Assembly (NCBI GenBank): GCA_964460615.1
Contig: CAYWPX010000004.1
Location: 83,116 to 147,115 of the forward strand
Origin: an uncultured Planctomycetia bacterium
GTDB taxonomy: Bacteria; Omnitrophota; Gorgyraeia; CAYWPX01
Length of the DNA: 64,000 nt
Reading direction: 5' to 3'
Shown here: positions 8,196-49,365 of the stretch, piece after piece
How positions within the stretch are numbered: the stretch's first letter is position 1
How the letters are laid out: each line of letters opens with the position of its first letter
The notes under the pieces: model-generated
The model's input: the letters and a program-made list of their open reading frames with translations, nothing else
What the model was told of the DNA's origin: nothing
The model's database searches: none
Translations under genes and position numbers: made by a program

Positions 8196-8255
8196 TGTAA
8201 TCTTCTCCTGGTTTTAAAGCTTGAAGCCTGAAGCATGCGACCCCTGCGGGGCATT

Positions 8256-15337: not shown

Positions 15338-15354
15338 TTAAACCTCCTTAATGG

Positions 15355-15404: not shown

Positions 15405-15410
15405 GAATTA

Positions 15411-15481
15411 CTTCGTCGAATGTGTCAAAATTATCAGATATTTTTATATCTGAAAATTTTGATACTTTTTATGAGACGAAG
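15411..15481. repeat. solitary copy of the 88-nt hairpin repeat in hcp upstream region
   Basis: cttcgtcgaatgtgtcaaaattatcag...ctgaaaattttgatactttttatgagacgaag, internally palindromic. Confidence 0.65.
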
Positions 15482-15511
15482 TTATCTTAATTGGTCCCTT
15501 TTTAGGGACGA

Positions 15512-16237: not shown

Positions 16238-16297
16238 TGGTTTTTCTCTTTTTTAATTTTTCGATGTACTATGTACGAAGTACGATATACTGTTTTT

Positions 16298-27790: not shown

Positions 27791-27880
27791 TACTTTTTCC
27801 TTAATTTTATCGTAGTAAAGCTTGTTTCTTTGCTATGAGCCCTGCCTGCCGGCAGGCAGGTATGAGCTAAACCGCAGCGG

Positions 27881-29707: not shown

Positions 29708-29749
29708 TTTGTCTAATTCCCTAACCCCTTAACCCTACACCCTCTTATC

Positions 29750-30652: not shown

Positions 30653-30694
30653 TTTTTATAGCTTTTCTTTTGACTATGAACCATGAGCTATGAG

Positions 30695-31744: not shown

Positions 31745-31787
31745 GCTAAATATTTAGCTTGAGACCTGAAGCCTGTAGCAGCTATTG

Positions 31788-33712: not shown

Positions 33713-33716
33713 ATGA

Positions 33717-34628
33717 TTAACGTAATTTTTTCTCTCTTTCTCTGAAAAACCTGTAGAGGCTTTTTGAATAAGGTATATCCGTCCTTATGTCGATATTATC
33801 CACATTGAGAGAATTAAATATTTTTTTTCTTTCTTCAAACTTTTTGTGAGAGCTGGCTTTATAACCGGCCCTGACCGATCTATTGGAAGTATCTACTAAA
33901 TAACTTCTCCCTGTTTCTGCGTCATTTAATCTTATCATTCCCACATCAGGCAATTCAAGCTCTCTCGGATCTCGTATAGTAACGGCAATACAATCATGGC
34001 GTTTGTTGGCAATGGAGAGCATTTTTTTGTAGTTGGTCTTGGAATAAAAATCTGAAATAATAAAACTAACTGCGCTGTGATTGGTAACGCTGTTAAAATA
34101 ATCCAAGGCGCCCGCAATATCTGTGCCTTTACCCTGGGGCTTATAATACAGGGCCTCTCTGATTATCCTAAGAACATGGCTTGGGCCTTTTCTTGGCGGA
34201 ATGAATTTCTCAATTTTATCGGTAAAGATCAACAATCCGACCTTGTCGTTATTTCTTATCGCTGAAAAAGCAAGGACTGAACAAAGCTCTGCCGCCAATT
34301 CGCTTTTGAGCTGGTGAATGCTTCCAAACCCGGTTGAAGCAGAGACATCGAGTAAGAGCATTACCGTAAGTTCCCTCTCTTCAACAAATTTCTTTACGTG
34401 CGGGTGCCCGGTCCTTGCAGTAACGTTCCAGTCTATGGAACGGATCTCGTCCCCAGGCAGATACTCCCTCACCTCATGAAACTCCATGCCGCGGCCTTTA
34501 AAAACACTCTGGTACTGCCCGGCGAAGACATTGGTAACCATTCGGGAGGTCGTGATCTCTATTAATCGGATTTTTTTTAGGATCTCTTTTGGGATCATTT
34601 TAAAGCCCGTATTTCGCACTTCGCACAT
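33717..34628 (-). CDS. DUF58 (VWA-like) protein, MoxR partner
   Basis: LLLDVSASTGFG VWA-like block; follows moxR. Confidence 0.8.
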   Translation of the reverse strand: MCEVRNTGFKMIPKEILKKIRLIEITTSRMVTNVFAGQYQSVFKGRGMEFHEVREYLPGDEIRSIDWNVTARTGHPHVKKFVEERELTVMLLLDVSASTGFGSIHQLKSELAAELCSVLAFSAIRNNDKVGLLIFTDKIEKFIPPRKGPSHVLRIIREALYYKPQGKGTDIAGALDYFNSVTNHSAVSFIISDFYSKTNYKKMLSIANKRHDCIAVTIRDPRELELPDVGMIRLNDAETGRSYLVDTSNRSVRAGYKASSHKKFEERKKIFNSLNVDNIDIRTDIPYSKSLYRFFREREKKLR

Positions 34629-34708
34629 CGTACATCGTTAAAATTAGTCTTTTTGCAAAATACGATATACGATGTACTATGTACCTGCCTCGCCCATGGG
34701 CGAGGCGT

Positions 34709-35716
34709 TTAAGGTACTTCCACTTCATCAAATATTCTTTTAATTATATCGTCCGAAGTTTTCTCTTCGGCTTCAGCTTCATAACTTGCTATAACCCTGT
34801 GCCTAAGGACATCGGGACCTATGGATTTGACATCTTGAGGAGTGACATAGCCTCTTCCTTGAATAAATGCATATGCCTTTGAGGCCAACGTCAGATATAT
34901 ACTCGCCCTTGGAGAAGCGCCATATTGGATCAGCCCTTCAAGATCGTTTAACTTGTATTTTTTCGGGTCTCTTGTGGCAAAAACTATATCAAGGATATAC
35001 TTTTCTATTTTTTCGTCAGTATATATCTCGTCTATAACTTGCCTGGCCTTTATAATTTGGTCCGGCGTAACTACGGGGTTAACCCCTATTTTTTTATCGG
35101 TATAGCCCATTCTCTTTAAAATTCTATGTTCTTCATCAAGACTGGGATAAGTGATATTGACTTTTAGCATAAACCTATCAACTTGGGCCTCCGGAAGAGG
35201 ATAAGTTCCCTCCTGTTCTATCGGATTTTCGGTTGCCATAACGAGAAACGGATCATCAAGTTTATAAGTATGTTCGCCTATGGTTACCTGCCTTTCCTGC
35301 ATCGCCTCCAATAATGCGCTCTGGACTTTTGCAGGAGCCCTGTTTATCTCATCAGCCAGGATGATATTAGAAAATATCGGGCCTTTTTTAGTAGTAAAAT
35401 TCCCGTCTTTCGGATTAAAGATAAGAGTTCCTATTAGATCGGCCGGAAGCAAATCCGGAGTGAACTGTATCCTCTGGAATTTAGTTTTTATTGCCTGGGA
35501 AAGAGTTTTTATCGAAAGTGTTTTGGCAAGGCCGGGGACACCTTCAACAAGTATGTGGCCATTTGCCAATAACCCCACCAAAAGTCTTTCAATAAGATAC
35601 CTTTGGCCTACTATTACCTTTTCAATTTCGCTTATGAGCGTATAGACAAATACGCTTTCTTTTTTTATCTTCTCATTTATCGCTGTTATGCCTTCTCCTA
35701 TCATAATATACCTCAC
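34709..35716 (-). CDS. moxR: MoxR-family AAA+ ATPase
   Basis: Walker A GVPGLAKT, Walker B/sensor, 335 aa. Confidence 0.9.
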   Translation of the reverse strand: MRYIMIGEGITAINEKIKKESVFVYTLISEIEKVIVGQRYLIERLLVGLLANGHILVEGVPGLAKTLSIKTLSQAIKTKFQRIQFTPDLLPADLIGTLIFNPKDGNFTTKKGPIFSNIILADEINRAPAKVQSALLEAMQERQVTIGEHTYKLDDPFLVMATENPIEQEGTYPLPEAQVDRFMLKVNITYPSLDEEHRILKRMGYTDKKIGVNPVVTPDQIIKARQVIDEIYTDEKIEKYILDIVFATRDPKKYKLNDLEGLIQYGASPRASIYLTLASKAYAFIQGRGYVTPQDVKSIGPDVLRHRVIASYEAEAEEKTSDDIIKRIFDEVEVP

Positions 35717-36015: not shown

Positions 36016-36771
36016 TTAATTAAAAACTGTTCTTTTGACGATCTCTTTAACGGTATTAAAAACATCTGAATTCCCCGGAAGTTCGAGAATTGACTTAGCT
36101 TCCAGGCTAAATTTTTCTATATCTTTACTAAAAAGAATATCTCCGCCAAAAGGTATGCCGGAAGATTTTATCTCACCGTCTAATTCTTTAATATCACCCT
36201 TTACCTTATTTATTATTAGATACACCTTATCCAGCTTAATACCAATTTCCCTGGCAAGATCGTAAATTCTTTTTGCTGACCTGATACCTATAACACTAAA
36301 ATCACTTACAATAAAAAGAATATCTATCTTACGGGCGGTTTTTCTGGAAATGTGCTCCATCCCGGCTTCATTATCCATAACGCTAAATTTATAATCATCC
36401 GTAAGATCTTTTACTATATCCCTTAAAAGGCTATTGGCATAGCAGTAGCAACCGGGGCCCTCGGGCCTTCCCATAGTTAGTAACGAGAGATTACCCTTTT
36501 CCATAATTGACTCTTCTATTTTATAACGAAGATATTCGTTTTTTGTCATTCCGGCAGGGATCTCGTCCTTTTTATCTATCATCTCTTCACAAACACTTGA
36601 GAGGGTGTCTTCCACCTTAAGCCCGAGCATCTCAGGAAGCGTAGAATTAGGATCGGCATCGACAGCCAATACGGAGTTCTCTTTGTCGGCTATCAGAGAC
36701 TTTATCACAAGACTTGAGAAAGTAGATTTCCCCGTCCCGCCTTTTCCTGTTATTGCTATTATTTTTGACAT
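36016..36771 (-). CDS. cooC: CooC/AcsF-type Ni-insertion accessory ATPase (MinD/ParA fold)
   Basis: AITGKGGTGKST deviant Walker A, CxC metal site (GPGCYCYAN); directly downstream of acsB. Confidence 0.85.
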   Translation of the reverse strand: MSKIIAITGKGGTGKSTFSSLVIKSLIADKENSVLAVDADPNSTLPEMLGLKVEDTLSSVCEEMIDKKDEIPAGMTKNEYLRYKIEESIMEKGNLSLLTMGRPEGPGCYCYANSLLRDIVKDLTDDYKFSVMDNEAGMEHISRKTARKIDILFIVSDFSVIGIRSAKRIYDLAREIGIKLDKVYLIINKVKGDIKELDGEIKSSGIPFGGDILFSKDIEKFSLEAKSILELPGNSDVFNTVKEIVKRTVFN

Positions 36772-36860
36772 TTTTTTCTCGTACGGCGTCTTTAGTACGG
36801 CGTACTGCGTTAAAATTTTTCTTTTTCGCTGTACACAATACTCCGTACGCCGTACTTCTT
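36772..36860. repeat. GTACG-family hairpin cassette (arm1 - A-rich loop GAAAAAGAAAAATTTTAACG - arm2) between acsB and cooC
   Basis: arm1 GTACGGCGTACGGAG pairs with arm2 CAGTACGCCGTAC; homologous cassettes at 497-603, 2533-2623, 4039-4117, 16238-16297, 34629-34708, 39057-39162, 40393-40462, 51676-51734. Confidence 0.7.
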
Positions 36861-39056
36861 TTACATTATTGATTCCATCGTAAGCGCCGGATGATTTACC
36901 TTTTCGAGATACGGCAAAAGCTCATCAACAGTGGTAGCTACCGTTTCATCGGCGATTTTATTAATAAAATCCGGGTCCCCTATTTCCTCGCATCGCTTTT
37001 TGAGTTTACCGGCTAAAGATTCTTTTAATTCTTTGGGCATCCAGACGATCCTTTTAAGCCCGCCTTCGGCAGAGATAAATTTCTTGCTTGTTATATAAAG
37101 CCTGCCTACCCCTAAAAATCCCGGTACCTGCTCACCCCCGCCGACAGATCCGGCAAGGGTGGTAAATTTCATACCGCATGGCGTCATACCGTTAAAATTC
37201 CTGTCTACTATCATTACACCATTTGCTTCAGGGATCAATGCAACTATACATTCAAAACATCCGCAGCTTGTTGTAGGAGCGTCCATAATAGAGTAAAGGC
37301 TCATGCGCGAAGTTGTCTTATTGGATTTATTATACATATATTCATTTATCGTTTCCCACTCGCCTTTTTTCTCGTCTATGGTCTTTCCTTTTTTGACCGG
37401 CTCATTGCCGCCTGTGGGGTTTATCTCTGAGGCCGCTTTTCCATCCAGCCAGTTATATGCTCCGCAAAGCCCAAGCCTTTCGGGGCTTATAATACAGATA
37501 TGATTGGGGGCGAATGACTGACAAAGTTTGCATGAATAATAGACATCAACACTTTCGTCTGTCATATGGGCGATCCTTGCGTCGCGCTCATCAAAAGCCT
37601 TCAATGCCTCGGGAAGGCGCTTCAAGATATCCTCTTCTTTTGTATAAATAGTGACCTGCACCTTATCAACAATCGAAGGAAAATCCTTTAGCAGTATCGA
37701 ATGCATGATCACACCTAGGTGTCTTAATTTAAAACCTGCCTTCACAGCGTCTTTACTTATTCTTATCCAGTTCATATCGCGCTGGCCGATATGCATTACA
37801 CCCATCGCTTCGCTTAAAGATGTATGAATGCGCCTTTCCAGGACGGGTTCAAAATCACTCTGCATCTTTCTTCCGGCTACATCGATAACCAAAGCAAACG
37901 GCAAAGCTTTTTTATTTGCACAATCAGCTTCGCTTATCTCAGGGCCTATAACTTCGATCTTGCCGTTTTCAACTTCCTCAAGCTTTCTCATCCTCACATA
38001 TTCAAACGCTTTTGAGGCTTTTCCCCCCATCTCGATGCAAGTCTCTTCTTTTCTTACTCTCTCCCCTTCGAACGCCGGGCCATAAGGAACAGGCACGTCG
38101 GGCTTATCGATAGTAACTTTTATGCCTCTTACTTCAATTCCTTTTTCTACTATTTTATCAACACTTACAGGCGATACAACATGCTCATATTTACACACGC
38201 CTGTTACAAGTATCTGGTCTATATCTGTATCCGCAATTACCGGAAATCCGAAATTTATCGCCCCGGCTGCAACACTAGCCTTAAGGTCGTCTACCGGTCC
38301 AAGCGCGAGGACAAATGCATTGACCCTGTTTTTATTATAAAGAAGTATATCATGAGCCTCTTTTGGCCCTTTTGGCGTTATCCCGCCGAATGTCATAGCG
38401 GCTCTTACGGCAAAATTAATAGCATAAATAGTAGAAGTAAGATCTTTCCCGTATGGTATCAAAAAAGAATCGAGGCCCATTTTTATATTTTCAGCTTCAA
38501 GTTGTTCGGCAATGTTCACGCCGTTAGATTCTCCTGACATAAAAACAAGTATTCTTCTTTCCTGAAGTTTCCTGATAATTTTTACGGCGTCTTTTGATGT
38601 AGGAGCGGCCCCCACTATTGCGGCAAACCCGGACATCCTTCCGTCAACCAGCCTTATGCCCTGTTCCCTTAAGACCCCATCCGGAGTAAACCCGGACCAT
38701 AGACCTGTAGCCGGATTATTGCCTCTAGCGTATTTTAAAGCTTCTATTATTTCAGCGGCAAAAAGCGTAGCCATCCCCGAATCAAGCGCAGGACCTAAAT
38801 AAGGCGTATAGCAACTATCCGTCGGATCATCATGTAAAAGTGTTTTGGCAAAATTTATTATTTGAACAAGATCTGATGCTTTCTGGGCCTTAAGAGCAAG
38901 CATTGCATAGGCAAAAGGAAGATAATAATTTGTATCCGGGAAAGCAACGAGCGCATCGAGCCCTTTTTCTTTGATAAATAGGTTAAGGTCACTCTCTGCG
39001 AGGTTAACCACTTTACGCGCACCGCTAATCGCAAATCCTGCTATTACTTTGGACAT
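36861..39056 (-). CDS. acsB: acetyl-CoA synthase catalytic subunit (CODH/ACS alpha, A-cluster)
   Basis: 731 aa; A-cluster block TSCGCFECIVALIPEANG, FAPNHICIISPERLGLCGA, C-terminal ADETVATTVDELLPYLEKVNHPALTM; full N-terminal CODH-interaction domain. Confidence 0.92.
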   Translation of the reverse strand: MSKVIAGFAISGARKVVNLAESDLNLFIKEKGLDALVAFPDTNYYLPFAYAMLALKAQKASDLVQIINFAKTLLHDDPTDSCYTPYLGPALDSGMATLFAAEIIEALKYARGNNPATGLWSGFTPDGVLREQGIRLVDGRMSGFAAIVGAAPTSKDAVKIIRKLQERRILVFMSGESNGVNIAEQLEAENIKMGLDSFLIPYGKDLTSTIYAINFAVRAAMTFGGITPKGPKEAHDILLYNKNRVNAFVLALGPVDDLKASVAAGAINFGFPVIADTDIDQILVTGVCKYEHVVSPVSVDKIVEKGIEVRGIKVTIDKPDVPVPYGPAFEGERVRKEETCIEMGGKASKAFEYVRMRKLEEVENGKIEVIGPEISEADCANKKALPFALVIDVAGRKMQSDFEPVLERRIHTSLSEAMGVMHIGQRDMNWIRISKDAVKAGFKLRHLGVIMHSILLKDFPSIVDKVQVTIYTKEEDILKRLPEALKAFDERDARIAHMTDESVDVYYSCKLCQSFAPNHICIISPERLGLCGAYNWLDGKAASEINPTGGNEPVKKGKTIDEKKGEWETINEYMYNKSNKTTSRMSLYSIMDAPTTSCGCFECIVALIPEANGVMIVDRNFNGMTPCGMKFTTLAGSVGGGEQVPGFLGVGRLYITSKKFISAEGGLKRIVWMPKELKESLAGKLKKRCEEIGDPDFINKIADETVATTVDELLPYLEKVNHPALTMESIM

Positions 39057-39162
39057 TTATTTTACCTCCAAATTATTTTTAGTACTTCGTCGTTCGTACT
39101 TCGTACATCGTTTTTTATTTTTCTTTTTCGATATACGCTATGCGATGTACGATGTACGGTTT
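39057..39162. repeat. GTACG-family hairpin cassette between cooS-like gene and acsB
   Basis: arm1 GTACATCGTACATCG, loop GAAAAAGAAAAATAAAAAACG, arm2 CGATGTACGAAGTAC; same architecture, different arm sequence with preserved pairing. Confidence 0.7.
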
Positions 39163-40392
39163 TTAATACATCATCGGCGCCAGCTTTAAAGCGCTTCGTT
39201 TTTTATCAATATGATCTATCATTATACGAGCTGCTTTTACCGGATCAGGTTCAAAGGCCCATTTACCGCCTAAGAGCCCTTCAATATCTTTTGTTATAAG
39301 ATTGACTACGTCCTTGCTTTCAATAATAGTCGACGGCGCGCCAAATACAACTAAAGCCCCGCTTGAAACAAAATACCATCCTATTGAAAGCATCTCGGCC
39401 GGCACAAGGTCAAAACTTGCTCCTGCTATCGGCAGATCATCTATACCGGCAAGCCCGGCCTCTTTTGCTATAGCGGCACATGCCAGAAGGATCCTCGAAT
39501 TATCACTCATTAAGCCCATATCAATGACGGGAGGGATCCCGACTGCTTTGCAGACTTCTTTAAGGCCCTTACCGGCTAAATCTTTGGCCTCGGGTTTAAA
39601 AAGCCCTGCTTTTACCGATTCGATTGAACATTTCCCGGTCTGGATAACCAGGCAATCATTTTTGATAAGTTCTTTTATCAATTTTACGCTGTCGGTACCG
39701 GCATTGGACGACGGGCTATCGCTTCCGGCAATCGCAGCAACACCTCTAATGCGCCCGTTAACTATATTATCAAGTAAAGGGACCAAAGAAGCCCTGAATT
39801 TCCCGCCCAGGTGGTATGGGATATTGTTCTCAGAGAATCCCGTTATATAATCATTACCTCCTACGGATTTCTTTGTAACTACCGGCATGCCGAAAATGAT
39901 ATCGCTTAATTCATTCTCTATCATGGCGCTTCCCCACCCCTCGGCAAGCGATGTCCTTATAATATTAGACGCTAGAGAGGCATCGTTTGGGTTTGATACT
40001 TTTGAAACGGCTAAGGCCGTTTCATCAATCTCTCTATTTATACCCCGCGGTATTGCATTAAGCTTTTTCCAGTAATCAGTTTGTTTTTTCAGAGCGCGCT
40101 TTGAAAAAATAAGGGCCGAGTCATCTTTTTTTTCAAATTCATTTAGCAATTTTGCCCCGAGCTCCATTGCGATTTCCGGATCTCTTTTATTCTCAGTAGA
40201 AATTAAAAATTCTATTGCTAGGCTTTTTAATTTCTCGGGACTTTTTATCGAAAGAGTTTTATCCAAGCCTTTTGCGATTGAAATAAGTTTATTTATAAGT
40301 TCTAAGGCTTTTTTAGAATGATTAGAAACCCCGCTTGCTGTAATACTTGCAACATCTTTTACGCTTACGCCTTTTGATTCCGTCTGTACCAT
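39163..40392 (-). CDS. degenerate CooS-like protein: homologue of C-terminal half of Ni-CODH lacking all C-cluster Cys/His ligands
   Basis: Aligns from memory with CooS C-terminal blocks: ASLAEGWGSAMIENELSDIIFG ~ ADGWGGSMIATEISDILFG; VIDMGLMSDNSR ~ VLHMGSCVDNSR; PIAGASFDLVPAEMLSIGW ~ PLVASAPECMSEKALAIGSW; cluster-ligand Cys replaced (CNN->SDSP, C->L, C->F); no N-terminal B/D-cluster domain. Confidence 0.65.
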   Translation of the reverse strand: MVQTESKGVSVKDVASITASGVSNHSKKALELINKLISIAKGLDKTLSIKSPEKLKSLAIEFLISTENKRDPEIAMELGAKLLNEFEKKDDSALIFSKRALKKQTDYWKKLNAIPRGINREIDETALAVSKVSNPNDASLASNIIRTSLAEGWGSAMIENELSDIIFGMPVVTKKSVGGNDYITGFSENNIPYHLGGKFRASLVPLLDNIVNGRIRGVAAIAGSDSPSSNAGTDSVKLIKELIKNDCLVIQTGKCSIESVKAGLFKPEAKDLAGKGLKEVCKAVGIPPVIDMGLMSDNSRILLACAAIAKEAGLAGIDDLPIAGASFDLVPAEMLSIGWYFVSSGALVVFGAPSTIIESKDVVNLITKDIEGLLGGKWAFEPDPVKAARIMIDHIDKKRSALKLAPMMY

Positions 40393-40462
40393 ATCTTTTC
40401 CTTTTTATTTAATATTTTTTGGTTTTTTCGAAATACGATGTACTATGTACGAAATACTGCTT

Positions 40463-41641
40463 TTATAGCCCCAAATCTGTCGGGGCCCTCCCGATAGACT
40501 CCAATAGCTTAGTAACTTCTTCGATCCTTTCTTCTATGCTTGATTCGGTGCCTTTTTTTTCCGGGTATATGGAATAGAGTTTCTGGTATTTTACAGGTGT
40601 CATATCAATCATCAGAGAGTTTCCGCCGGCCAATAACCCTTTTTTAGCTCCTTCAAATTTATCAAGAGTCTCCAGGGCTGTCGTAACAAGGATCCTTGCA
40701 TCAGGATATAGCATTCTGGCACGGGCAATAGACGTAAGCGCCATATCAAGACTTGGAAGAGAAGCGTCTTTTAAGGGAGTATCTTTGTGCGAAATAAAAG
40801 GGCCGAATGAGAACATCTCTGAATGAAGTTTATTCGTAAGATGGATATCTCTTAATATATCCTCCTCGGTCTGGCCGGGTAAACCCACTAAAAAACCGGT
40901 CATTATAAGATATCCCATCCTGTGTAGCTCTTCGATGAGTTCGATCCGTTTTTTTAGATTTGACCCGGGCTTTAAAGAAGAATAGAGATCTTCTTTTGAG
41001 GTCTCGAACCTTAGAAGGATCCCCCTTGCACCTCGTTCGTAGAGTAATTTATAAGTAGATAAATCTCTTTCACCTATACTCATTATTAAAAGAACATTGC
41101 ATCGCGACCTCACCTTATCAATAATATCCATTAATATTTCATCATTATACCACATGTCCTCGCCAGATTGTAGGACTAATGCCTTAAAATTATACTTATT
41201 AACAGCCATATCAGAAGCCTCGACTATCTCATCCACCGACATGCGGTACCTAATTAAATTATCATTACTGTTTCTTATGCCGCAATAGAGGCAGTCCTTA
41301 ACGCAATAGTTTGAAAAATTTATAATACCGTGTACACAGCATGAGTTGCCGGTATGTTCGTGTCTAGTCTTGTTGGCCAGCTGGTAAAGGGTCTTTGCTT
41401 CGCTGGTAAGCCTCATGTCTGTTTCCTGCAACTCGTTAAATAATTCCTTCCAGTCACTAAGGACGGCTTTGGCTTTTGTTTCTTCTACCCTTTCGATGAT
41501 AAACCCGCCCTGGGCAAGGACATAATCGCCTATTGCAAGTTTACAAAAGTCATTCCTGGCTAACTTTCTTTCGCCAAAATAGTCTATCGTAACCAGCTTA
41601 TCTCTTATCTCTACAACAACCCCTGGTATTGCGTAGCACAT
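40463..41641 (-). CDS. HypC/HupF-like domain fused to HydE-type radical-SAM maturase
   Basis: N-terminal ~75 aa MCYAIPGVVVEI...GDYVLAQGGFII matches HypC; remainder ...VHGIINFSNYCVKDCLYCGIRNSNDNLIRYRMSVDEIVE...LVLQSGED...GLPGQTEEDI...TPVKYQKLYSIYPEKK tracks HydE block by block incl. CxxxCxxC. Confidence 0.8.
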   Translation of the reverse strand: MCYAIPGVVVEIRDKLVTIDYFGERKLARNDFCKLAIGDYVLAQGGFIIERVEETKAKAVLSDWKELFNELQETDMRLTSEAKTLYQLANKTRHEHTGNSCCVHGIINFSNYCVKDCLYCGIRNSNDNLIRYRMSVDEIVEASDMAVNKYNFKALVLQSGEDMWYNDEILMDIIDKVRSRCNVLLIMSIGERDLSTYKLLYERGARGILLRFETSKEDLYSSLKPGSNLKKRIELIEELHRMGYLIMTGFLVGLPGQTEEDILRDIHLTNKLHSEMFSFGPFISHKDTPLKDASLPSLDMALTSIARARMLYPDARILVTTALETLDKFEGAKKGLLAGGNSLMIDMTPVKYQKLYSIYPEKKGTESSIEERIEEVTKLLESIGRAPTDLGL

Positions 41642-41642
41642 A

Positions 41643-42998
41643 CTAGTTTTTTAAGTCACCAACCTTTTTAATATATTTATCTATATCAAATTTTCTTCTT
41701 AACCCAGCCTCGTTCATGAATCTAATTTTGCCGAAAATCTTTCTCTCGCCCCAAGCCCTGTCATGTTTTCCAAAACACCACGCTACTCCCGTAAAACCAT
41801 TCGGGTCCCGTCCGTCAAGTTCGTACTTATTATTAAGATAAAGAGCTCTTTTAAATGCATCTTCAGGGGTTTGGGACCACTCAAGTATTTTTTTCCCCCA
41901 ATACATCCTCATATATCCGTGCATCTTACCGGTAATAACCATCTCTCTTTGAGCTGCATTCCAGGCTACGTCATGTGTTTTGGCGTTTTCAAGATCCGGC
42001 AGGCTGTAGGCATAATTCCTCTTATCGCCCTTATGTTCATATAAAGTTTTTTTGGCCCAATTAGGCAATCCTTCAAACGAATCGTAATTTTTATTATAAT
42101 AAATATAATTAAGGCTCAGTTCCCGCCTTATTATAAGTTCTTCGAGGTATGCTGATCTTGCCTTTGACCTTGACCGCATTACTTTTAGCGCAATATATAA
42201 AGGCGAGATCTGGCCAAAATGCAGATAAGGGCTCATATTTGACAGATAATCAACCGATGGATCATTCCTCAGGTCATTAAAATGATTTATTTTTCTTTTA
42301 AGAAAATTATTCAGATGCCTTTTTGCCTCATTCGTCCCCCCGTGAAAATACCCGGAACTCGGGACCTTTTTATCAATATCTAAGGATCGAACCAATCTAT
42401 CAATATTTTTCAAAGATAGCGAACCAATTTTAATATCAAGCGATTTTCTAGCTGGGCGATTTGTTTTTAAGCCTGTGACATATTTCTCTAAGCATCTATT
42501 TATTTTAGGCCTTATAGTGGCAGCGCTGAATTCCTCTTTTGTTGAGGCAACTTCAACAGGCACTACACAATCGCTTTCAACTTCTACCAGCTGGCAGTCA
42601 ATTTTTTTTGCGGCTTCATCTCTCCATGATCGCTGTATCTTCAGATACCCTCTGTCAGCTACTACAAGGCACGCTCTTTTTGATAATTTTATCGCACCGG
42701 CCTCGGGATCATTTTTGATAATTACAAACTTGCCCCCTAATTTTCTTAGCCCCGATTCCACCTCTTTTAAACCCTCGAGCATAAAATAATAATGCCTTAA
42801 ATTCGCTTCCGGGAAATTATCTGTAAGCCCAAAATAGACAACGAGCGGTTTTTTTAAACTATTCGCTTTTAATATGGCATATTGAAGTGCATGGTTATAC
42901 TCAACCCTTTGGGAGGCCTGCATCCAGTAAATTACATAATCCCTGTTGAGCACCGGATTATCATTTAAAAATTTTAACCGCTCTTTTTGAATCATCAA
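41643..42998 (-). CDS. class II CPD photolyase (FAD-dependent DNA photolyase)
   Basis: VIYWMQASQRVEYNHALQYA, RNDPSVDYLSNMSPYLHFGQIS, YELDGRDPNGFTGVAWCFGKHDRAWGER match class II photolyase blocks. Confidence 0.8.
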   Translation of the reverse strand: MMIQKERLKFLNDNPVLNRDYVIYWMQASQRVEYNHALQYAILKANSLKKPLVVYFGLTDNFPEANLRHYYFMLEGLKEVESGLRKLGGKFVIIKNDPEAGAIKLSKRACLVVADRGYLKIQRSWRDEAAKKIDCQLVEVESDCVVPVEVASTKEEFSAATIRPKINRCLEKYVTGLKTNRPARKSLDIKIGSLSLKNIDRLVRSLDIDKKVPSSGYFHGGTNEAKRHLNNFLKRKINHFNDLRNDPSVDYLSNMSPYLHFGQISPLYIALKVMRSRSKARSAYLEELIIRRELSLNYIYYNKNYDSFEGLPNWAKKTLYEHKGDKRNYAYSLPDLENAKTHDVAWNAAQREMVITGKMHGYMRMYWGKKILEWSQTPEDAFKRALYLNNKYELDGRDPNGFTGVAWCFGKHDRAWGERKIFGKIRFMNEAGLRRKFDIDKYIKKVGDLKN

Positions 42999-43021
42999 AA
43001 GCTCGTATTTTCAGAACAAAC

Positions 43022-43576
43022 TTATTCACCGAGATTATATCTGACCGTCTCTTTAAATGATTTTCTTATTTTTGGCCTGGGTGATTCAATATCCGAGGGA
43101 CCGGGATATCCAAGGCTTATCAAGATATCGATCTTTTTACTTCTGGGAATATTCAGGATTCTCTTGGCCTCTTTTTCATTGAACCAGCCTAATATACAGC
43201 TACCGACTCCAAGGGCCTGAGCCTGGAGAATAAAATTTGCAACCGCGATCCCAATATCCATAAGGCTGAACTTGACCCCTCTAAAAAAACCGCCAAGTTT
43301 GGATGTATAAGACTCTTTTTCCCTTATGACCGCTATTATAACCGGAGCAGACTTCGCAAATGTATTCATGGAATGAGTACCGGAAAAAACTTTATTAACA
43401 AATTCTTCCTTAAGCTTCGGATCATCTACGACAACAAATGACCATGGCTGCGAGTTACAGGCAGACGGGGCTAAACGCGCCGCCTCTAGACACCTATCAA
43501 TCACATCGCGCGGAATAGTGTCTGTCCGGTACCTTCTTGTGCTTTCTCTCGATTTTACGAGTTCCAGGAAATCCAT
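43022..43576 (-). CDS. nitroreductase family protein
   Basis: RESTRRY...APSACNSQPWSFVVV FMN nitroreductase signature. Confidence 0.8.
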   Translation of the reverse strand: MDFLELVKSRESTRRYRTDTIPRDVIDRCLEAARLAPSACNSQPWSFVVVDDPKLKEEFVNKVFSGTHSMNTFAKSAPVIIAVIREKESYTSKLGGFFRGVKFSLMDIGIAVANFILQAQALGVGSCILGWFNEKEAKRILNIPRSKKIDILISLGYPGPSDIESPRPKIRKSFKETVRYNLGE

Positions 43577-43670
43577 GTCTATGCCTTTAATTAAAAACGA
43601 TTTTTTTCTATGAGCTCTGCCTGCCTACGGCTTTGCCGTGAAGCAGGCGAAACTATGAGCCATGAGCTAA

Positions 43671-44135
43671 TTATCTATTCAAAACCACTATCCAATAATT
43701 AAGTACCGTTGCAAAACTTACCCAAAATACATAAGGTACAAGTAAAATTCCGGCTAATTTGGATATATTAAAAAAACTTACTATCGTCAACACAATTGCA
43801 ATCCACAATAAAGCTATAATAACTAATCCGCCCATTGGCGACCTAAGACCAAAAAAAACCGGAGACCAGACAGCGTTTAGAATTATCTGGATTGCAAAAA
43901 ATAGTAATGCCAATTTAACGGAGCTTTTAGTCGTTTTCTTATTCCAAACCAAAAAAAGCGAAATCGCCATAAGAAAATATAACACTGACCACACGGGGCC
44001 GAATACCCAGTTCGGAGGACTGAAAAAAGGTTTATTAAGTTTATCATACCAATCCGGAATGGAGCCGGCGGTAAAGATAGAGCCTAAAGCCCCTGCCCCG
44101 AAACATATTATAAGGCTTACAAAAAATTTAAACAT
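43671..44135 (-). CDS. tspO: TspO/MBR tryptophan-rich sensory protein
   Basis: 154 aa, five TM, PxWxFGPVWSVLY motif. Confidence 0.8.
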   Translation of the reverse strand: MFKFFVSLIICFGAGALGSIFTAGSIPDWYDKLNKPFFSPPNWVFGPVWSVLYFLMAISLFLVWNKKTTKSSVKLALLFFAIQIILNAVWSPVFFGLRSPMGGLVIIALLWIAIVLTIVSFFNISKLAGILLVPYVFWVSFATVLNYWIVVLNR

Positions 44136-44149
44136 AGATTATTTACTGC

Positions 44150-44914
44150 TTAATTTTTTGTTTCCATAGGAAGTTTTTTGAAACACATAAACCAGTCAAG
44201 GCAATAATAATCAGTACCGGCTTTCTCCACTCTTTCTTTCGCTGTGCCGCATGAACCGGGAGGAGGTATTATTACATCATCCCCGGGCTGCCAGTCAGCG
44301 GGTGTCGCGACGTTATTGGCATCTGATGTCTGCATCGCTATTAATAACCGCTTTATCTCGGAGAAATTCCTGCCGTTCGAAAGAGGGTAATATATCATGG
44401 CCCGGATCTTTGCGCTGGGATCGATAAAAAACACGGCTCTTACGGCTTTGGTATCGCTTGCCGAGGGCTGGACCATCCCGTATTTTTTTGCTACTTCCAT
44501 TTTTATGTCAGCTATTACAGGAAAAGTTATCTCAACATTCTCCATATCTTTATATTTAATTTTATCCTGGATAGTCTTCAACCAGGCTATGTGGCTGTAG
44601 GTACTGTCTATTGAAAGGCCTATAAGCTTGCAATTTAAGGCTTCAAATTCCGGCAACATTTTGGCAAATGTCATAAATTCAGTCGTACATACCGGGGTAA
44701 AATCAGCAGGGTGGCTGAAAAGTATTACCCATTTGCCTTTATAATCCTCAGGAAAACTTATATCACCTTGCGTTGTCTCAGCCTTAAAAGAAGGCGCCAT
44801 TTGGCCGATAAGCGGCATCTGATTAATGGGACATGTCTCGGGTTCAGCGGCAGATAAAGAAGATGCTGTACCCAGAACCACCAATACAAACAAATAAAAA
44901 AATACTTTTTTCAT
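44150..44914 (-). CDS. secreted 1-Cys/Prx6-like peroxiredoxin with Cys-containing C-terminal extension
   Basis: signal peptide; HPADFTPVCTTE peroxidatic motif; extra CGTAKER...YYCLDWFMC tail. Confidence 0.8.
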   Translation of the reverse strand: MKKVFFYLFVLVVLGTASSLSAAEPETCPINQMPLIGQMAPSFKAETTQGDISFPEDYKGKWVILFSHPADFTPVCTTEFMTFAKMLPEFEALNCKLIGLSIDSTYSHIAWLKTIQDKIKYKDMENVEITFPVIADIKMEVAKKYGMVQPSASDTKAVRAVFFIDPSAKIRAMIYYPLSNGRNFSEIKRLLIAMQTSDANNVATPADWQPGDDVIIPPPGSCGTAKERVEKAGTDYYCLDWFMCFKKLPMETKN

Positions 44915-44929
44915 AATGCCCTCCTTGTG

Positions 44930-45475
44930 TTAGAATATTTCACCTTGATTATCCTGCTTAAAGATCTCGCTCATATTTGCTAAATAGGCCGAATATGTTA
45001 TATCATCAAAAGATACGATAACTACTTTTTTTGGATTAGTTGGATTCGTATTAAAAAAATCCCTGATCTCCCTAAGCGCTATTCTTGACGCCCTATCTAC
45101 GGGAAAACGATATGCGCCTGTACTGATCGAAGGAAAAGCGATTGACCTTATCCCGTACTCTTTGGCGAGTTTAAGTGAGTTTTTGTAGCAATTTGCCAAA
45201 AGCTCATCTTCATTATCCTTACCGTCATTCCAGACCGGTCCAACAGTATGAATGACCCATTTAGCCGGAAGGTTATAACCCTTTGTTATTTTCGCTTCGC
45301 CTCGCCTGCATCCATTAAGAGCTTTGCATTCTTCCAAAAGCTTTTCTCCGGCAGCTTTATGGATTGCGCCGTCAACCCCGCCGCCTCCAAGCAAACCAGT
45401 ATTGGCGGCGTTTACTATCGCATCCACGTCCTGTAGAGTTATGTCGCCTTTTACTATCACAATATTCTGGAACAA
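44930..45475 (-). CDS. macro-domain protein (ADP-ribose binding / O-acetyl-ADP-ribose deacetylase-like)
   Basis: [33 protein letters not shown] signature. Confidence 0.85.
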
Positions 45476-45490
45476 AATTTAGGCCTCTGG

Positions 45491-47089
45491 CTACTGTTTT
45501 TTATCGCTTAAAACCACCGATCTTCCAAAACTGCCCGAAAGAATGGTGTTGACCCTTGACCCGCTAAAAACCTCTTCCAACCTCTTAAGCTCTTTGGTCC
45601 TTATAACACAGATAACCCTGTCTTTATCATTAAAAAAATTTGTTACGGAACTGTCTTCGTTGATATTGACCACATCCACCGGATGCGCGGACCAGAAAGG
45701 ACTGCCGTTTTTACCTAGTACTGTCACAGGATTGCCGGTATTAAAGGAAGAGCCTCTTGCGAACAACTTACTGGCCAGAATCGGCCCTTTATAATTATAA
45801 TCTTTAACGATCCTAATAAGATCATTGTCACAAAAAGCCGGTTCGATCGCCTTAAACGGAAAAGTGGCCGGCAATATTATCGCTACGCATACTAACCCTA
45901 TAACGTTATAAAAAATCGCTTTTTTGAAATTCTTTTTGATTAACATTATTCCGGATATGGCTAAAGATACCGAAAGAAATATGACCCCCAATAAAACCGA
46001 AATAAAAAAATCCGGGTACTCTTTTTTTACATACCAAAGCGGCGCAAATAAAACCAGCGCTAATACCAAATCCAGAACGCCGACTGCCTTTACTCTCTTG
46101 GGTTTATTTTTTAAACCGGTCAGCCCTATTCCGATCATTACGCAAATTGCCGCATATAACGGCACAATATAGCTGATAAGTTTTGAATGGGCCGCTGTAA
46201 ATACCACAAATACAGAAGCGATCCATGAAAAAAGAAACAGATATTCTTTTTTATACTCTTTAAACTTTTCTCCTATAAACAGATAATAAAATGTCCAAGG
46301 GAACGCCCCTCCCAGTAAAACCGCCGGGTAGAACCACCACCTGTCAAAATTTTTGTGCTCTGCCTCAAGGATCCTTCTTATATTGTCGTTGATAATAAAT
46401 TCGTCATAAAAAATCTTGCCGAATTTTATGCTAACATACAGATACCAAGGAAGAGCAATGATCAAAAATAGAAACCACCAATTATTAAAGATAAACTGCT
46501 TTACTAGCGCCTTATCCTTAATAAGGATAGAGAATAACACGACCGCAAGCCCCATCATCACTAAACTAACGGGCCCTTTGGTTAGTACCGCAAGCGCCAA
46601 AAATACCGCGAATGGCAACAAGCTCTTTCTTTCCTTATACCAAATATAAAAACTGAAAAAACTAAAAAACATAAAAACTGAAAAAACTATATCGGTAATG
46701 ACTGCTTTGGATAGCCCCATATAGATAAGGCTGGTCGCAAGGACCAAAGAAGAGTAGAAAGAGATCTCTTTATTAAAGATCCTGCTTAGATAAACATATG
46801 CCCCTATAACACCTATTATCCCGAATATTGCCGGAATGAACCTTGCCGCAAAAGGAATGATCCCGAAAACTTTAAAAGAAAGCATCAATAACCAGTAAAA
46901 AAACGGAGGCTTTTCAAATTGCGGCTGGTCGAATATATAAGGGATCATAAAGCTGCCCTTATTCATCATCTCTTTGGCTGTTAAGGAATAGAATGTCTCA
47001 TCGGGATCCGTTAAAGCAATGGAGTTGTTGCCTATCAGAAATAAAAAAGCCGCTAATATTATAAGAATAACCGGATAAAATTTATTCAT
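45491..47089 (-). CDS. GT39/ArnT-like integral-membrane glycosyltransferase (PMT family)
   Basis: 532 aa, ~12 TM, N-terminal DPDETFY loop motif. Confidence 0.7.
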   Translation of the reverse strand: MNKFYPVILIILAAFLFLIGNNSIALTDPDETFYSLTAKEMMNKGSFMIPYIFDQPQFEKPPFFYWLLMLSFKVFGIIPFAARFIPAIFGIIGVIGAYVYLSRIFNKEISFYSSLVLATSLIYMGLSKAVITDIVFSVFMFFSFFSFYIWYKERKSLLPFAVFLALAVLTKGPVSLVMMGLAVVLFSILIKDKALVKQFIFNNWWFLFLIIALPWYLYVSIKFGKIFYDEFIINDNIRRILEAEHKNFDRWWFYPAVLLGGAFPWTFYYLFIGEKFKEYKKEYLFLFSWIASVFVVFTAAHSKLISYIVPLYAAICVMIGIGLTGLKNKPKRVKAVGVLDLVLALVLFAPLWYVKKEYPDFFISVLLGVIFLSVSLAISGIMLIKKNFKKAIFYNVIGLVCVAIILPATFPFKAIEPAFCDNDLIRIVKDYNYKGPILASKLFARGSSFNTGNPVTVLGKNGSPFWSAHPVDVVNINEDSSVTNFFNDKDRVICVIRTKELKRLEEVFSGSRVNTILSGSFGRSVVLSDKKQ

Positions 47090-47105
47090 TGTTCTCCTTT
47101 TTGAC

Positions 47106-47561
47106 TTATTGTTTTTCCACAGGATTACCTTTTCTTTTCCATTCGCCCAAGCCGCCTTTATATATGATAACTTTGTATCCGAGGCTTAATAAGATCCTTG
47201 CAGCTCTTTGAGCTTTGTGGCAGGTATTCCCGCTACAGTAGATAAGTAACCTTGAACCCTCCGGAAGGATCCTTCTGGCTGAATCCGGATTTATCGCATT
47301 ATAAGGAAGCGATAAGGCGCCCGGTATGTGCCCTTTTATATATGTTTCGTACAACAAAACATCTACAAGCACGAAATTTTTTTCAGAATTCAGCAATTTT
47401 GAGAATGTGTCATAATCAATAAACCGGATGCCGTTTTCTTCGGGTATCATCAAATAAAGCGTGTCATAATCATTATCGGGATCACTATAACCAAATGCAG
47501 AAGATCCCAAAAAAATTAAAAACATTACCAATATAACAAATAAAATAGCTGTTTTTTTCAT
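47106..47561 (-). CDS. secreted rhodanese-domain protein
   Basis: signal peptide; active-site loop YCSGNTCHKAQRAA. Confidence 0.75.
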   Translation of the reverse strand: MKKTAILFVILVMFLIFLGSSAFGYSDPDNDYDTLYLMIPEENGIRFIDYDTFSKLLNSEKNFVLVDVLLYETYIKGHIPGALSLPYNAINPDSARRILPEGSRLLIYCSGNTCHKAQRAARILLSLGYKVIIYKGGLGEWKRKGNPVEKQ

Positions 47562-47610
47562 AAAATACTCCTCCCTGGTTGATACCAGCTACAATTTATT
47601 TTCTTATTTA

Positions 47611-48117
47611 TCAATAAACCACCCTGTTGCCGGATTCTTCCCATCTATCCAATAATTCCATGCATTCATCGGTCATAAAACGAGAAATTATCACAAGCGG
47701 GCTCCTGCCGAGTTTTTTCATAGTTTTGCCGGATATCGTAAGCTCGTTAAATCCGAGCCTTTTGACATCTTTTATTGAAGTGCCATAATAGAGCCTCCTG
47801 ATCCTCGCCCAATGTATCGCGCTAAAACACATGGGACAAGGCTCCGTGGTAGAATAGATATCGCAACCCGAAAGGTCGAAAGATCCGAGTTTTTTTGCGG
47901 CAATTTTTATGGCGTTTATTTCGGCATGAGCTGTCGGATCATTATTTAAGAGCACCTTGTTTCTTGATAGCGCAATTAATTTTCCGTTTTTTACTATAGC
48001 GGCTCCGAAAGGCCCCCCATGAATGGCCCTGATGTTAACACCTGCCTCTTTGATGGCCATTTTCATAAATTTATTATCAGGTCTAAGACTAGCCATGGGT
48101 TTTACCTCCCCAATCAA
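47611..48117 (-). CDS. CMP/dCMP-type zinc deaminase (TadA/guanine deaminase-like)
   Basis: HAEINAI ... PCPMCFSAI zinc motifs; true start may be internal Met (MKMAIKEA). Confidence 0.75.
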   Translation of the reverse strand: MIGEVKPMASLRPDNKFMKMAIKEAGVNIRAIHGGPFGAAIVKNGKLIALSRNKVLLNNDPTAHAEINAIKIAAKKLGSFDLSGCDIYSTTEPCPMCFSAIHWARIRRLYYGTSIKDVKRLGFNELTISGKTMKKLGRSPLVIISRFMTDECMELLDRWEESGNRVVY

Positions 48118-48317
48118 TGCTTTGTTTCAAGCTCTTTGGGTTTTCTCGGGATCAAGAGCCACATAACTAGATACACGACTATCCCAAACCCCCAAAGAAG
48201 AGTAATTAAGATAAAAAGGATCCTAAAAAACACGGGATCCTTGTCAAAGTACTCTCCCAGGCCTCCGCAAACACCCGCAATTTTCCGGTCAGTGTTAGAA
48301 AGATATAATCTTTTCAT
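48114..48317 (-). CDS. PspC-domain membrane protein
   Basis: LYLSNTDRKIAGVCGGLGEYF PspC motif plus one TM; 67 aa; start overlaps deaminase end. Confidence 0.6.
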   Translation of the reverse strand: MKRLYLSNTDRKIAGVCGGLGEYFDKDPVFFRILFILITLLWGFGIVVYLVMWLLIPRKPKELETKH

Positions 48318-48330
48318 GGGAATATTAAAT

Positions 48331-49365
48331 CTATTTATTAAAACGTTCTCTTATAATATTTTTGATCTCAAGCGCTTCTTCCCCAATCCCCTGTTTTTGG
48401 CAGGTAGTGACATATGAATCCCAGCAACCGGAGGTCAGCGTATACATTTTTGAAACCTCTTCAGGGGGCAATACAAAAAAATCCATTCCTCTGGCTTTAG
48501 CTTCGGCTATTATAGGTTCATCCTGCTTTTCGGTGTAGACCTTGACCCATTTTGCCCAGAGCTCTTTTGAATGGATAACATCGATAATAATCGATCTTGC
48601 TTCATCATCCATCTTATTCCATTTATTAGCGCTCATCCAGAAAAAACCCGCTACATAGCCTATAAAAGGAGGTTCAACGACCTCATCGCATACTTCCCAG
48701 AGGTTGTATTGCTTTATAGTATATGAGGTCATAAGGCCTCCGTCTATGGAGCCTTTTTCCAGGGCTTTATAGTAATCTCCTATGGTATCAACCGGCTGCG
48801 CGCCAAGGGCCTTTATCCCTGAAGAAGATTCAACGCTTGTGCCTCTGATCTTAAGGCCCTTAAAGTCCTCCAGAGTACGGACCTTTTTTGCCTTTTTTGT
48901 GATCTGAAAATTGTACGGGCCTATCGGGAATGCCCCCAGATATTTCACATTAGCATGTTTCATATATACCTGGTCCACGATCTCGCCAACCTTCCCGTTA
49001 ACCAATAGATCCCAGCAATCTTCCCACCCCTTGAAATTCCCGGGCAGTTGCTGAAAACTCCCTATGGCAATTTTATCCGTATAATAGGTTGGATATGCGA
49101 CTAAAATATCTATATTCCCGGCAACCAGAGCATCAATACCCTTATCTTTTCGGGCAGGTTTGCCATAATTCCTGAAAAACTTTATTTTCCCGTTTGATCT
49201 GGTTTCGATCTGGTCAAGGCAATCTTCAACGAATTTAAGCCTCATATGGCCCTTTGGATATACAGACTCAAATGTCAATAAATATGTCTGTTTAGGGCCA
49301 TCGCTAAATGCATTGGTTTCGGTGAAGGCTATAATCGCTAAAAGCAGTATTAGGCGTTTTATCAT
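48331..49365 (-). CDS. TRAP-transporter solute-binding protein (DctP family), orphan
   Basis: signal peptide; LEDFKGLKIRGTS, ALGAQPV, YKALEKGSIDGG DctP blocks; no dctQM adjacent. Confidence 0.65.
   Translation of the reverse strand: MIKRLILLLAIIAFTETNAFSDGPKQTYLLTFESVYPKGHMRLKFVEDCLDQIETRSNGKIKFFRNYGKPARKDKGIDALVAGNIDILVAYPTYYTDKIAIGSFQQLPGNFKGWEDCWDLLVNGKVGEIVDQVYMKHANVKYLGAFPIGPYNFQITKKAKKVRTLEDFKGLKIRGTSVESSSGIKALGAQPVDTIGDYYKALEKGSIDGGLMTSYTIKQYNLWEVCDEVVEPPFIGYVAGFFWMSANKWNKMDDEARSIIIDVIHSKELWAKWVKVYTEKQDEPIIAEAKARGMDFFVLPPEEVSKMYTLTSGCWDSYVTTCQKQGIGEEALEIKNIIRERFNK

Follow-up and report, generated by a model that had tools for sequence, protein, structure and literature searches.

A single gene in the window analysed here (the whole 64-kb stretch of contig CAYWPX010000004.1, from an uncultured Omnitrophota bacterium) encodes a 392-residue protein in which a HypC/HupF-like domain is joined to a HydE-like radical S-adenosylmethionine (SAM) barrel. 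The Fe-CO/CN sites of hydrogenases are thought to be built by unrelated machineries, HypABCDEF for the [NiFe] enzymes and HydEFG for the [FeFe] enzymes; here, a module of each stands in one protein, which is conserved in hundreds of genomes and tied to HydG. We propose, at roughly even odds (about 0.5), that the fusion is a HydG-fed organometallic-iron maturase, that is, a HydE subfamily with an on-board HypC-type Fe(CO)(CN) carrier, whose presumed clients are most likely [NiFe] hydrogenases. More tentatively, HydG and the HypC-HydE fusion could together form a radical-SAM, tyrosine-derived route to the [NiFe] Fe-CO/CN unit, replacing HypC, HypD, HypE and HypF in many uncultured anaerobes of the Omnitrophota, Elusimicrobiota, Planctomycetota and Firestonebacteria and in some DPANN archaea. 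The fusion itself had been recognised in an earlier sequence-only reading of this DNA; the present analysis adds the family's size, its HydG partner, the existence of triple fusions, a clade-specific rebuilding of the product cavity and a [NiFe]-side gene neighbourhood devoid of HypCDEF.

The fusion gene is a single open reading frame (ORF) on the minus strand (40463..41641, stop codon at 40463-40465). No earlier start codon lies between its ATG and the preceding in-frame stop, and the plus-strand translation of the same interval is riddled with stops. The encoded N-terminus, MCYAIPGVVVEIRDKLVTIDYFGERK, is the one quoted in the sequence-only reading. The HypC/HupF-like domain spans residues 1-79 (41405..41641, minus strand), as delimited by PF01455, by matches to HypC proteins in the PDB and by the secondary structure of the model, and the HydE-like radical-SAM (beta-alpha)8 barrel spans residues 80-392 (40466..41404, minus strand), as delimited by TIGR03956 and with Thermotoga maritima HydE (TmHydE) as the best match in both sequence and fold. 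An AlphaFold2 model obtained with 112 homologues was confident as one body (predicted local distance difference test, pLDDT, 93.5; predicted template modelling score, pTM, 0.92), with a small beta-barrel (residues 7-52) followed by a long helix (54-79) and then the (beta-alpha)8 barrel. The chance that the fusion is an artefact, be it a chimera of the assembly, two genes joined by a frameshift or a pseudogene in decay, appears negligible: the same length and architecture recur in more than 120 homologues at 56-64% identity and in 367 genomes of independent assemblies, all family-invariant residues are kept in the window protein, and the model is that of a single body. The coordinates given in the sequence-only reading are exact, and its architecture is confirmed: we find one gene rather than two split by a frameshift, an N-terminus that is HypC-like and a barrel that groups with HydE.

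In the HypC half, Pfam HupF_HypC (PF01455) matches residues 1-62 with 52.4 bits (gathering score 28.5, E 5.9e-14, profile positions 1-63 of 65), which bears out the proposal that the N-terminal residues are HypC/HupF-like; the NCBIfam model TIGR00074 (hypC) is marginally missed (45.8 bits vs a cutoff of 48). Among solved HypC structures, 2z1c and 3vyr are matched by sequence, and the Thermococcus HypC covers residues 1-69. The protein begins with MCYAIPG, and the second residue of this motif, Cys2 (codon 41636-41638, minus strand), which had been singled out in the sequence-only reading, is the essential iron-ligand cysteine of HypC and is invariant across the family, as are P6 and Q44 (112 fusion sequences). 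The fusion shares with HypC, HybG and HupF, the chaperones for Fe(CN)2CO in [NiFe]-hydrogenase maturation, the MC-x-x-[ILV]-P-G N-terminus with its invariant Cys2, a fold in which a helix comes after a small beta-barrel, an above-threshold Pfam score and genes that lie beside [NiFe] large subunits, the endopeptidase, HypA or HypB. It differs from them in three respects. HypC, HybG and HupF are free proteins of ~80-90 residues, whereas the HypC domain of the fusion is tethered to a 36-kDa enzyme; the conserved histidine that is His51 in E. coli HypC is a glutamine by alignment (Gln44, itself invariant in the fusion family); and HypC, which receives CN from HypE/HypF, works with HypD, its obligatory scaffold partner (PMC12134894), which was found in none of 87 fusion neighbourhoods of ~20 kb.

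The second half is a HydE-type barrel, although not that of a standard HydE. Its score on TIGR03956 (HydE) is 252.4 bits over residues 77-384, a marginal miss by 2.2 bits (cutoff 254.6), and HydE still ranks first among the NCBIfam models (PylB, 121.9 bits; BioB, 75.5 bits; HmdB, 60.7 bits). Pfam Radical_SAM is matched over residues 107-267 (59 bits) and the BATS domain only weakly, below threshold (16.9 bits vs 22.2). The best solved structure by sequence is TmHydE (208 bits, E 1.9e-60), followed by PylB (79 bits), and the best fold matches of the model in Foldseek are TmHydE entries (template modelling score 0.82-0.88, normalised to the target), again followed by PylB. By profile score, by comparison with solved structures and by predicted fold, the radical-SAM part therefore groups with HydE and not with PylB or BioB, in line with the sequence-only reading. 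The CX3CX2C block noted there as typical of Thermotoga HydE is also present (41282..41305, minus strand): C113, C117 and C120 align with C63, C67 and C70 of TmHydE and are predicted to bind the radical-SAM [4Fe-4S] cluster. Two further conserved residues, M276 (40814-40816) and M344 (40610-40612), bound a segment at 40610..40816 (all minus strand), as delimited by alignment to TmHydE and by residue frequencies; they correspond by alignment to M224, an Fe ligand at the S3 site, and to M291, the 'valve' methionine (roles from PMC10114646 and PMC11826987). Compared with TmHydE (PDB 3cix/7o1o; 34-35% identity), the fusion shares the (beta-alpha)8 radical-SAM fold, the CX3CX2C motif, the complex-B pocket and valve residues and, in most lineages of the family, a canonical HydG as partner, but it carries the N-terminal HypC domain that TmHydE lacks and is devoid of the C-terminal auxiliary-cluster cysteines that TmHydE has. 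The radical-SAM half belongs to a distinct HydE subfamily with a remodelled product site.

This subfamily is large. A search of 5.8 billion proteins returned 4376 matches at E <= 1e-10, and each of the best 120 has both parts, HypC and radical-SAM, in full length (390-415 residues, 56-64% identity); database names, where given for these 120, read 'HydE', 'biotin synthase' or 'radical SAM protein'. When 185,579 species-representative genomes were scanned with fusion-specific peptides (MCY[AS]IPG[KR][VI] and [GD]N[SA]CC[VI]HGI), the fusion was found in 367. The bacterial carriers belong to Omnitrophota, Elusimicrobiota, Planctomycetota/Brocadiia, Firestonebacteria, Desantisbacteria, WOR-3, Lentisphaerae, Margulis- and Saganbacteria, Ignavibacteria and Bdellovibrio-like bacteria, and the archaeal carriers are DPANN (Aenigm-, Micr-, Woese- and Altiarchaeota). 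In a longer form of ~430 residues, the N-terminal helices of normal HydE survive in part (~40 residues), and these are lost from the 392-residue form of the window. Far from being rare, the fusion makes up a large family, to which NCBI's pipeline simply gives the name 'HydE' or 'radical SAM protein', and genome annotation currently mis-files it as plain 'HydE'.

The fusion family also forms a clade of its own, marked by a rebuilt product cavity. In an exhaustive HMMER search of 1.84 billion cluster representatives, ~20 fusion representatives scored 444-265 bits, and the canonical HydEs (330-370 residues, 33-43% identity) followed below them at 259 bits or less. Every HypC-fused representative carries Cys-x-His just before strand beta1, where canonical HydE has [His/Tyr/Phe]-x-Arg. 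In the window protein this clade-specific motif is C101-C102-V103-H104, at the start of strand beta1 (41330..41341, minus strand), C102 and H104 replacing H52 and R54 of TmHydE. Both residues are present in 30/30 fusion-clade representatives and the pair in 0/114 non-clade sequences, about 104 of which have Arg at the H104 position; C102 and H104 are also, together with C2, P6, Q44 and the three cluster cysteines, among the residues invariant across the 112 fusion sequences. When the barrel domains were placed in a neighbour-joining tree, the sequences with Cys-x-His grouped in a single clade (24/30 bootstraps) that includes three genuinely unfused members. These three (P0145, P0148 and P0242) have no HypC domain and keep the normal HydE N-terminus.

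Residues were mapped onto TmHydE by alignment, with their roles taken from PMC10114646 and PMC11826987. The CX3CX2C motif is invariant in both the fusion clade and canonical HydE, and Q107, R/K159, E161, T268, T269, A270, V105, L157, M224, M291 and K/R309 (TmHydE numbering) are conserved in both groups. All the residues of the complex-B pocket and of the hydrophobic valve are in the window protein, and each is found in at least 23/30 clade representatives (most in 27-30/30). The lower (S3) cavity is different: there, in TmHydE, the Fe2 product touches R54, T134 and R155 through its CN ligands (PMC11826987), and these three positions are occupied by His, by Phe, Ile, Val or Tyr, and by Gly, Ala or Ser, respectively, in 30/30 fusion-clade representatives, with H52 replaced by Cys and often a second Cys added. 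The corresponding residues of the window protein are H104, I186, G207 and C102, plus the extra C101. In the canonical comparison set, which consists of the 104 of 114 non-clade sequences picked for Arg at position 54 (so that the R54 count holds by construction), T134 is kept in 100/104 and R155 in 97/104. From these alignments, the part doing the radical chemistry looks unchanged, and the part that holds and releases the product looks to have changed alongside the gain of HypC. Cavity change and HypC domain co-occur, which may reflect a hand-off to Cys2. Co-variation computed as mutual information with average product correction (158 dereplicated fusion sequences, effective number 131) was confounded by the split between the 392- and 430-residue subfamilies and is not used as evidence; its pairs joined HypC positions 17, 29 and 31-33 to barrel positions 186, 206 and 247 in the lower cavity.

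The partner of the fusion is HydG. We assembled 87 loci, each with up to ~21 kb of sequence surrounding a fusion gene (the window's genome is not among the 80 loci kept from the species-representative scan), called and clustered their ORFs, and dereplicated them at 75% identity into 63 lineages; one further locus, L091, was fetched later and stands outside these counts. HydG lies within 10 kb of the fusion in 61/87 loci (46/63 lineages). This radical-SAM protein of 443-500 residues reaches 525-547 bits with TIGR03955 (cutoff 312), matches T. italicus HydG over the full length at about 55% identity and carries both the C-terminal CX2CX22C auxiliary-cluster motif and the GPHTISVPR histidine segment. 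The two genes share a strand and are separated by a median of 11 nt (60 nt or less in 45/58 pairs), and both orders occur, with HydG upstream in 39 and downstream in 19. HypC, HydE and HydG are even found in single polypeptides (P0127, 906 residues; P0143, 881 residues). Altogether, functional coupling of the fusion to HydG is well supported.

Other joins occur among hydrogenase maturases. A HydE-HydG fusion without HypC, which retains the canonical His-x-Arg motif, is found in P0151 (803 residues), and a HydEF fusion exists in Chlamydomonas. Like the HypC-HydE protein, these are Rosetta-stone joins of consecutive steps in one organometallic assembly line, a logic that the triple fusions P0127 and P0143 extend; HydE-HydG and HydEF nevertheless stay inside the [FeFe] tool-kit, whereas HypC-HydE joins a module of the [NiFe] system to one of the [FeFe] system. 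A further parallel is NifB, most members of which carry an extra NifX-like domain (PMC10114646), so that there too a radical-SAM metallocofactor enzyme is covalently joined to a presumed product-holding domain; cofactor (NifB-co), carrier fold and pathway differ, and the likeness is one of design and not of homology. A 779-residue 'fusion' at locus L045 was discarded, as it reads through a masked N-run. Long tblastn spans at L061, L071, L077 and L079, where HydG is directly downstream, presumably arise from cross-matches into its radical-SAM domain rather than from inteins.

We searched the loci for HydA, HydF and the Hyp proteins with phmmer and tblastn, using real sequences as queries (the E. 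coli proteins for Hyp). A [NiFe] large subunit, a HycI-type endopeptidase, HypA or HypB was present within 10 kb of the fusion in 40/87 loci and 34/63 lineages. These lineages belong to at least six phyla, among them Omnitrophota, Elusimicrobiota, Planctomycetota, Firestonebacteria and Ignavibacteria, and [NiFe]-related genes also lie near the fusion in Pseudomonadota- and Bdellovibrio-labelled bins and in one archaeon. As a rough estimate, only a few percent of 20-kb segments drawn at random from such genomes would overlap a [NiFe] operon, making the enrichment large. The recurrent upstream genes encode either a group-3b-type [NiFe] hydrogenase (alpha, delta, gamma and beta subunits) or a Mrp/NuoI-type group-4 module, and the order in those loci is the hydrogenase module, then the HycI-type maturation endopeptidase, then HydG and the fusion, the endopeptidase gene often directly abutting the HydG-fusion pair. 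The order is fusion-HypA-HypB in Firestonebacteria and HypA-HydG-fusion in Elusimicrobia. HypE, HypF and free-standing HypC were, like HypD, absent from all 87 loci (~20 kb each), and the E. coli HypC query matched only the fusion's own N-terminus. We rank a [NiFe] role first because these neighbourhoods contain the Ni-insertion half of the Hyp system together with the protease but not the Fe(CN)2CO half, in place of which a CO/CN generator with a HypC-tagged enzyme is found.

Other genes recur around the HydG-fusion pair. In three Omnitrophota loci (L017, L024 and L058), a MoeB/ThiF-type adenylyltransferase (~260-300 residues) lies between the [NiFe] endopeptidase gene and HydG, and could provide a sulfur-transfer or activation step linked to the module. 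In one Omnitrophota lineage (L001, L002, L004, L007, L008 and L010, ~400-10000), the pair ends a conserved cluster encoding MoeA, a porin-like 435-residue protein, a 4Fe-4S protein, NrfD, a ~1100-residue molybdopterin oxidoreductase and a 483-residue membrane protein, the last of which has no family match. In the only lineage with HydF nearby, a 730-residue protein (L042, 12224-14416, with an equivalent in L047) sits between the HydG-fusion pair and Rex-HydF; it has a C-terminal radical-SAM domain and is not HydE-like. A 'HydA-like' match at L068 proved to be only a ferredoxin plus GCV_H domain of a [NiFe] complex.

Taken together, these observations can be arranged into a working scheme. Canonical HydG is established to synthesise an Fe(CO)2(CN)-cysteinate synthon, and as the partner here is a canonical HydG by sequence, it would yield the same compound. 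Judging from the conserved residues, the radical-SAM half of the fusion would hold this synthon in a pocket identical to that of TmHydE, where a 5'-deoxyadenosyl radical would attack the cysteine sulfur. Canonical HydE then parks two Fe(I) units in its lower cavity (R54, T134 and R155) and passes an Fe2S2(CO)4(CN)2 dimer to HydF. In the fusion, the rebuilt cavity with its one or two added cysteines may instead let a mononuclear Fe-CO/CN fragment pass through thiolates to Cys2 of the tethered HypC domain. This domain would in turn hand the fragment to a hydrogenase apoprotein, the likeliest candidate from the gene neighbourhoods being a [NiFe] enzyme. HydG and the fusion would in this way do the job of HypC, HypD, HypE and HypF, and HypA, HypB and the endopeptidase would complete maturation as usual. 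A few lineages may use the fusion, additionally or alternatively, to supply HydF and an [FeFe] hydrogenase.

Several observations weigh against a [NiFe] role, and some of them would be expected if the fusion were a lineage-specific HydE for the [FeFe] H-cluster, with a HypC-like domain that merely eases passage of the labile synthon between HydG, HydE and HydF, and with [NiFe] neighbours that reflect a general clustering of hydrogen genes. HydG and the upper HydE pocket are canonical, just as a plain [FeFe] pathway predicts; the HydG product carries two CO and one CN and the [NiFe] site one CO and two CN, so that a ligand adjustment would be needed; and the HypC domain has Gln44 in place of the histidine that is important in HypC. 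In two Omnitrophota loci (L042/L047), HydG, the fusion and HydF share one cluster with a bifurcating-type set of a NuoF-like subunit and HydA (a fragment), without any other HydE, and in these loci the fusion has the appearance of an [FeFe] system's HydE. HydA is also near the fusion in L015 and L085, many members are named HydE by NCBI's pipeline, and the HydG/HydE pairs characterised so far all serve [FeFe] hydrogenases (PMC10114646). Neighbourhood specificity is moreover not absolute, since the HydG-fusion pair also follows acs operons (L011 and L091) and the molybdenum-oxidoreductase operon. None of the partners is encoded in the window (its 64 kb have no gene for a hydrogenase, HydG, HydF or Hyp), and HypCDEF, HydF and HydA may lie elsewhere in the fusion-bearing genomes, beyond the loci searched. 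Against an [FeFe] role stand the neighbourhood counts: within 10 kb of the fusion, HydF occurs in 1/63 lineages (L042/L047) and true HydA in 3/63, two of which have [NiFe] genes nearby as well, so that HydF or HydA is found in 3-4/63 lineages vs 34/63 for [NiFe]-related genes. The fusion family is in this respect unlike HydE, being rarely beside HydF or HydA and often beside [NiFe] genes. The residues that hold the dimer meant for HydF (R54, T134 and R155) are all replaced, the added domain comes from a family (PF01455) known only in [NiFe] maturation, and in several phyla the pair comes directly after the [NiFe] endopeptidase gene or before hypA-hypB. On balance, we consider a purely [FeFe] function unlikely, while giving it real weight.

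Two other explanations fare less well. The radical-SAM half could have left hydrogenase maturation for a new substrate, as in PylB or BioB, with the HypC-like domain acting as an OB-fold (oligonucleotide/oligosaccharide-binding) adaptor; the TIGR03956 score just under cutoff, the separate clade whose nearest neighbours are odd HydE-like sequences without Arg54, and the many loci, the window included, with no hydrogenase gene nearby all fit this view. We hold it to be improbable, given that the HydE-specific pocket residues are conserved, that operonic pairing and even fusion with a canonical HydG is the rule, that Cys2 is invariant at the extreme N-terminus and that hydrogenase genes are strongly enriched nearby. 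It is even less probable, in our estimation, that the fusion serves the neighbouring carbon monoxide dehydrogenase/acetyl-CoA synthase (CODH/ACS), for example by delivering CO or an iron fragment to an ACS whose CODH has lost its clusters. HydG chemistry does make CO, the fusion of the window lies 70 nt upstream of a degenerate CooS followed by AcsB and CooC, with no terminator-like site between, and at L011 and L091 the HydG-fusion pair directly follows an acs operon. Yet the nearest relatives of the window locus (L089/L090, with a CooS-like protein 70% identical) have nitroreductase, CooS', AcsB and CooC in a row without the fusion; ACS-related genes are found at only one of the other 86 clustered loci (L011), L091 being the second case; and the fusion starts 1 nt after the stop of a photolyase-family gene, in an operon that mixes unrelated functions. 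The A- and C-clusters of ACS and CODH are not known to contain CO or CN ligands, and these enzymes have Ni-insertion ATPases of their own.

A full-text literature search found no protein with the HypC-HydE architecture and no description of a radical-SAM route to the [NiFe] cofactor, subscription journals lying outside its reach; the sequence-only reading likewise knew of no described fusion. A 2024 survey of archaeal [FeFe] hydrogenases screened HydE, HydF and HydG with TIGR models and found these maturases missing from most archaea, with incomplete sets in a few; HypC is unmentioned. According to a 2025 review of [NiFe] hydrogenases, six Hyp proteins are needed anaerobically and where the CO ligand comes from is the most pressing open question, and the term 'radical SAM' does not appear in it (PMC12134894). 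If the [NiFe] role proposed here is correct, the family would represent an unrecognised cross-over of [FeFe] and [NiFe] maturation and an anaerobic source of the [NiFe] carbonyl ligand, and would offer a defined two-gene system for simpler heterologous hydrogenase production. Should the fusion instead be a HydE variant for [FeFe] enzymes, its remodelled cavity and tethered thiolate carrier would still bear on how the labile Fe(I) product exits HydE.

In the window (GC about 39%, all genes on the minus strand), tblastn found no HydG, HydA, HydF, [NiFe] large subunit, protease or HypA, in keeping with the sequence-only reading, which had reported no hydA, hydG or hydF in 64 kb; the partners of the fusion would have to lie elsewhere in this genome. 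The ATG of the fusion comes 1 nt after the stop codon of the photolyase-family gene (TAG-T-ATG, 41639-41645), which suggests that it is co-transcribed with this functionally unrelated gene. The next same-strand genes encode a 409-residue CooS remnant (39163-40392, minus strand, by alignment to full-length CODH), a 731-residue AcsB and a CooC-type ATPase. The adjacency to a cysteine-less CooS, acsB and cooC emphasised in the sequence-only reading is real, but the linkage is not conserved: the closest syntenic relative has no fusion at this place. That relative is represented by two read-assembly contigs (L089/L090; ERR7850084/5), which share with the window the gene order DctP, deaminase, PMT, Macro, nitroreductase, CooS', AcsB, CooC and Dus; between their nitroreductase and CooS' genes, photolyase and fusion are both missing. 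Compared with window positions 36016-49365, they also lack the AhpC-TspO pair and the Bat/MoxR operon and carry PALP- and AIRS-family genes instead; the region around CooS'-AcsB-CooC is rearrangement-prone. The AIRS-family gene near CooC in L089 was considered as a HypE and rejected, being only 28% identical and devoid of the C-terminal PRIC cysteine. At the two loci where the HydG-fusion pair does follow ACS genes (L011, 12-7344; L091, 467-11179; both Omnitrophota), these are arranged as AcsB-AcsC-RACo-CooC-AcsD-AcsE, with HydG and the fusion directly after them. The ACS adjacency of the window is probably incidental.

The CooS-like protein is itself unusual. It aligns to full-length CODH in two blocks (residues 12-175 with target residues 87-250, and 182-402 with 413-628) and thus lacks the N-terminal B/D-cluster segment and ~160 central residues. 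It also has GSDS and GLMSD where CODH has GCNN and GSCVD, motifs that we take, from CODH-II, to be C-cluster ligand positions. In the 5.8-billion-protein collection, it has one relative of similar length (P0276, 429 residues, 70% identity), the other matches being Omnitrophota-type CODHs of roughly 640 residues (47-61% identity). Since two genomes keep it next to AcsB and CooC genes that seem intact, it has the look of a pseudo-enzyme preserved as a partner for acetyl-CoA synthase. It is not the published 'mini-CooS', which retains all cluster ligands (PMC3328121).

The remainder of the window is made up of oxygen-stress and central-metabolism genes. The former, at 5911-9458, 14051-17566, 27023-35716 and 41643-44914, encode peroxiredoxins, a desulfoferrodoxin, a ferritin/rubrerythrin-like protein, a flavodiiron protein, a hybrid-cluster protein with an Rrf2 regulator, a MoxR/BatA-E aerotolerance operon, the photolyase-family protein, a nitroreductase and TspO. 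So many oxygen- and nitrosative-stress genes close together are in keeping with an anaerobe that encounters oxygen.

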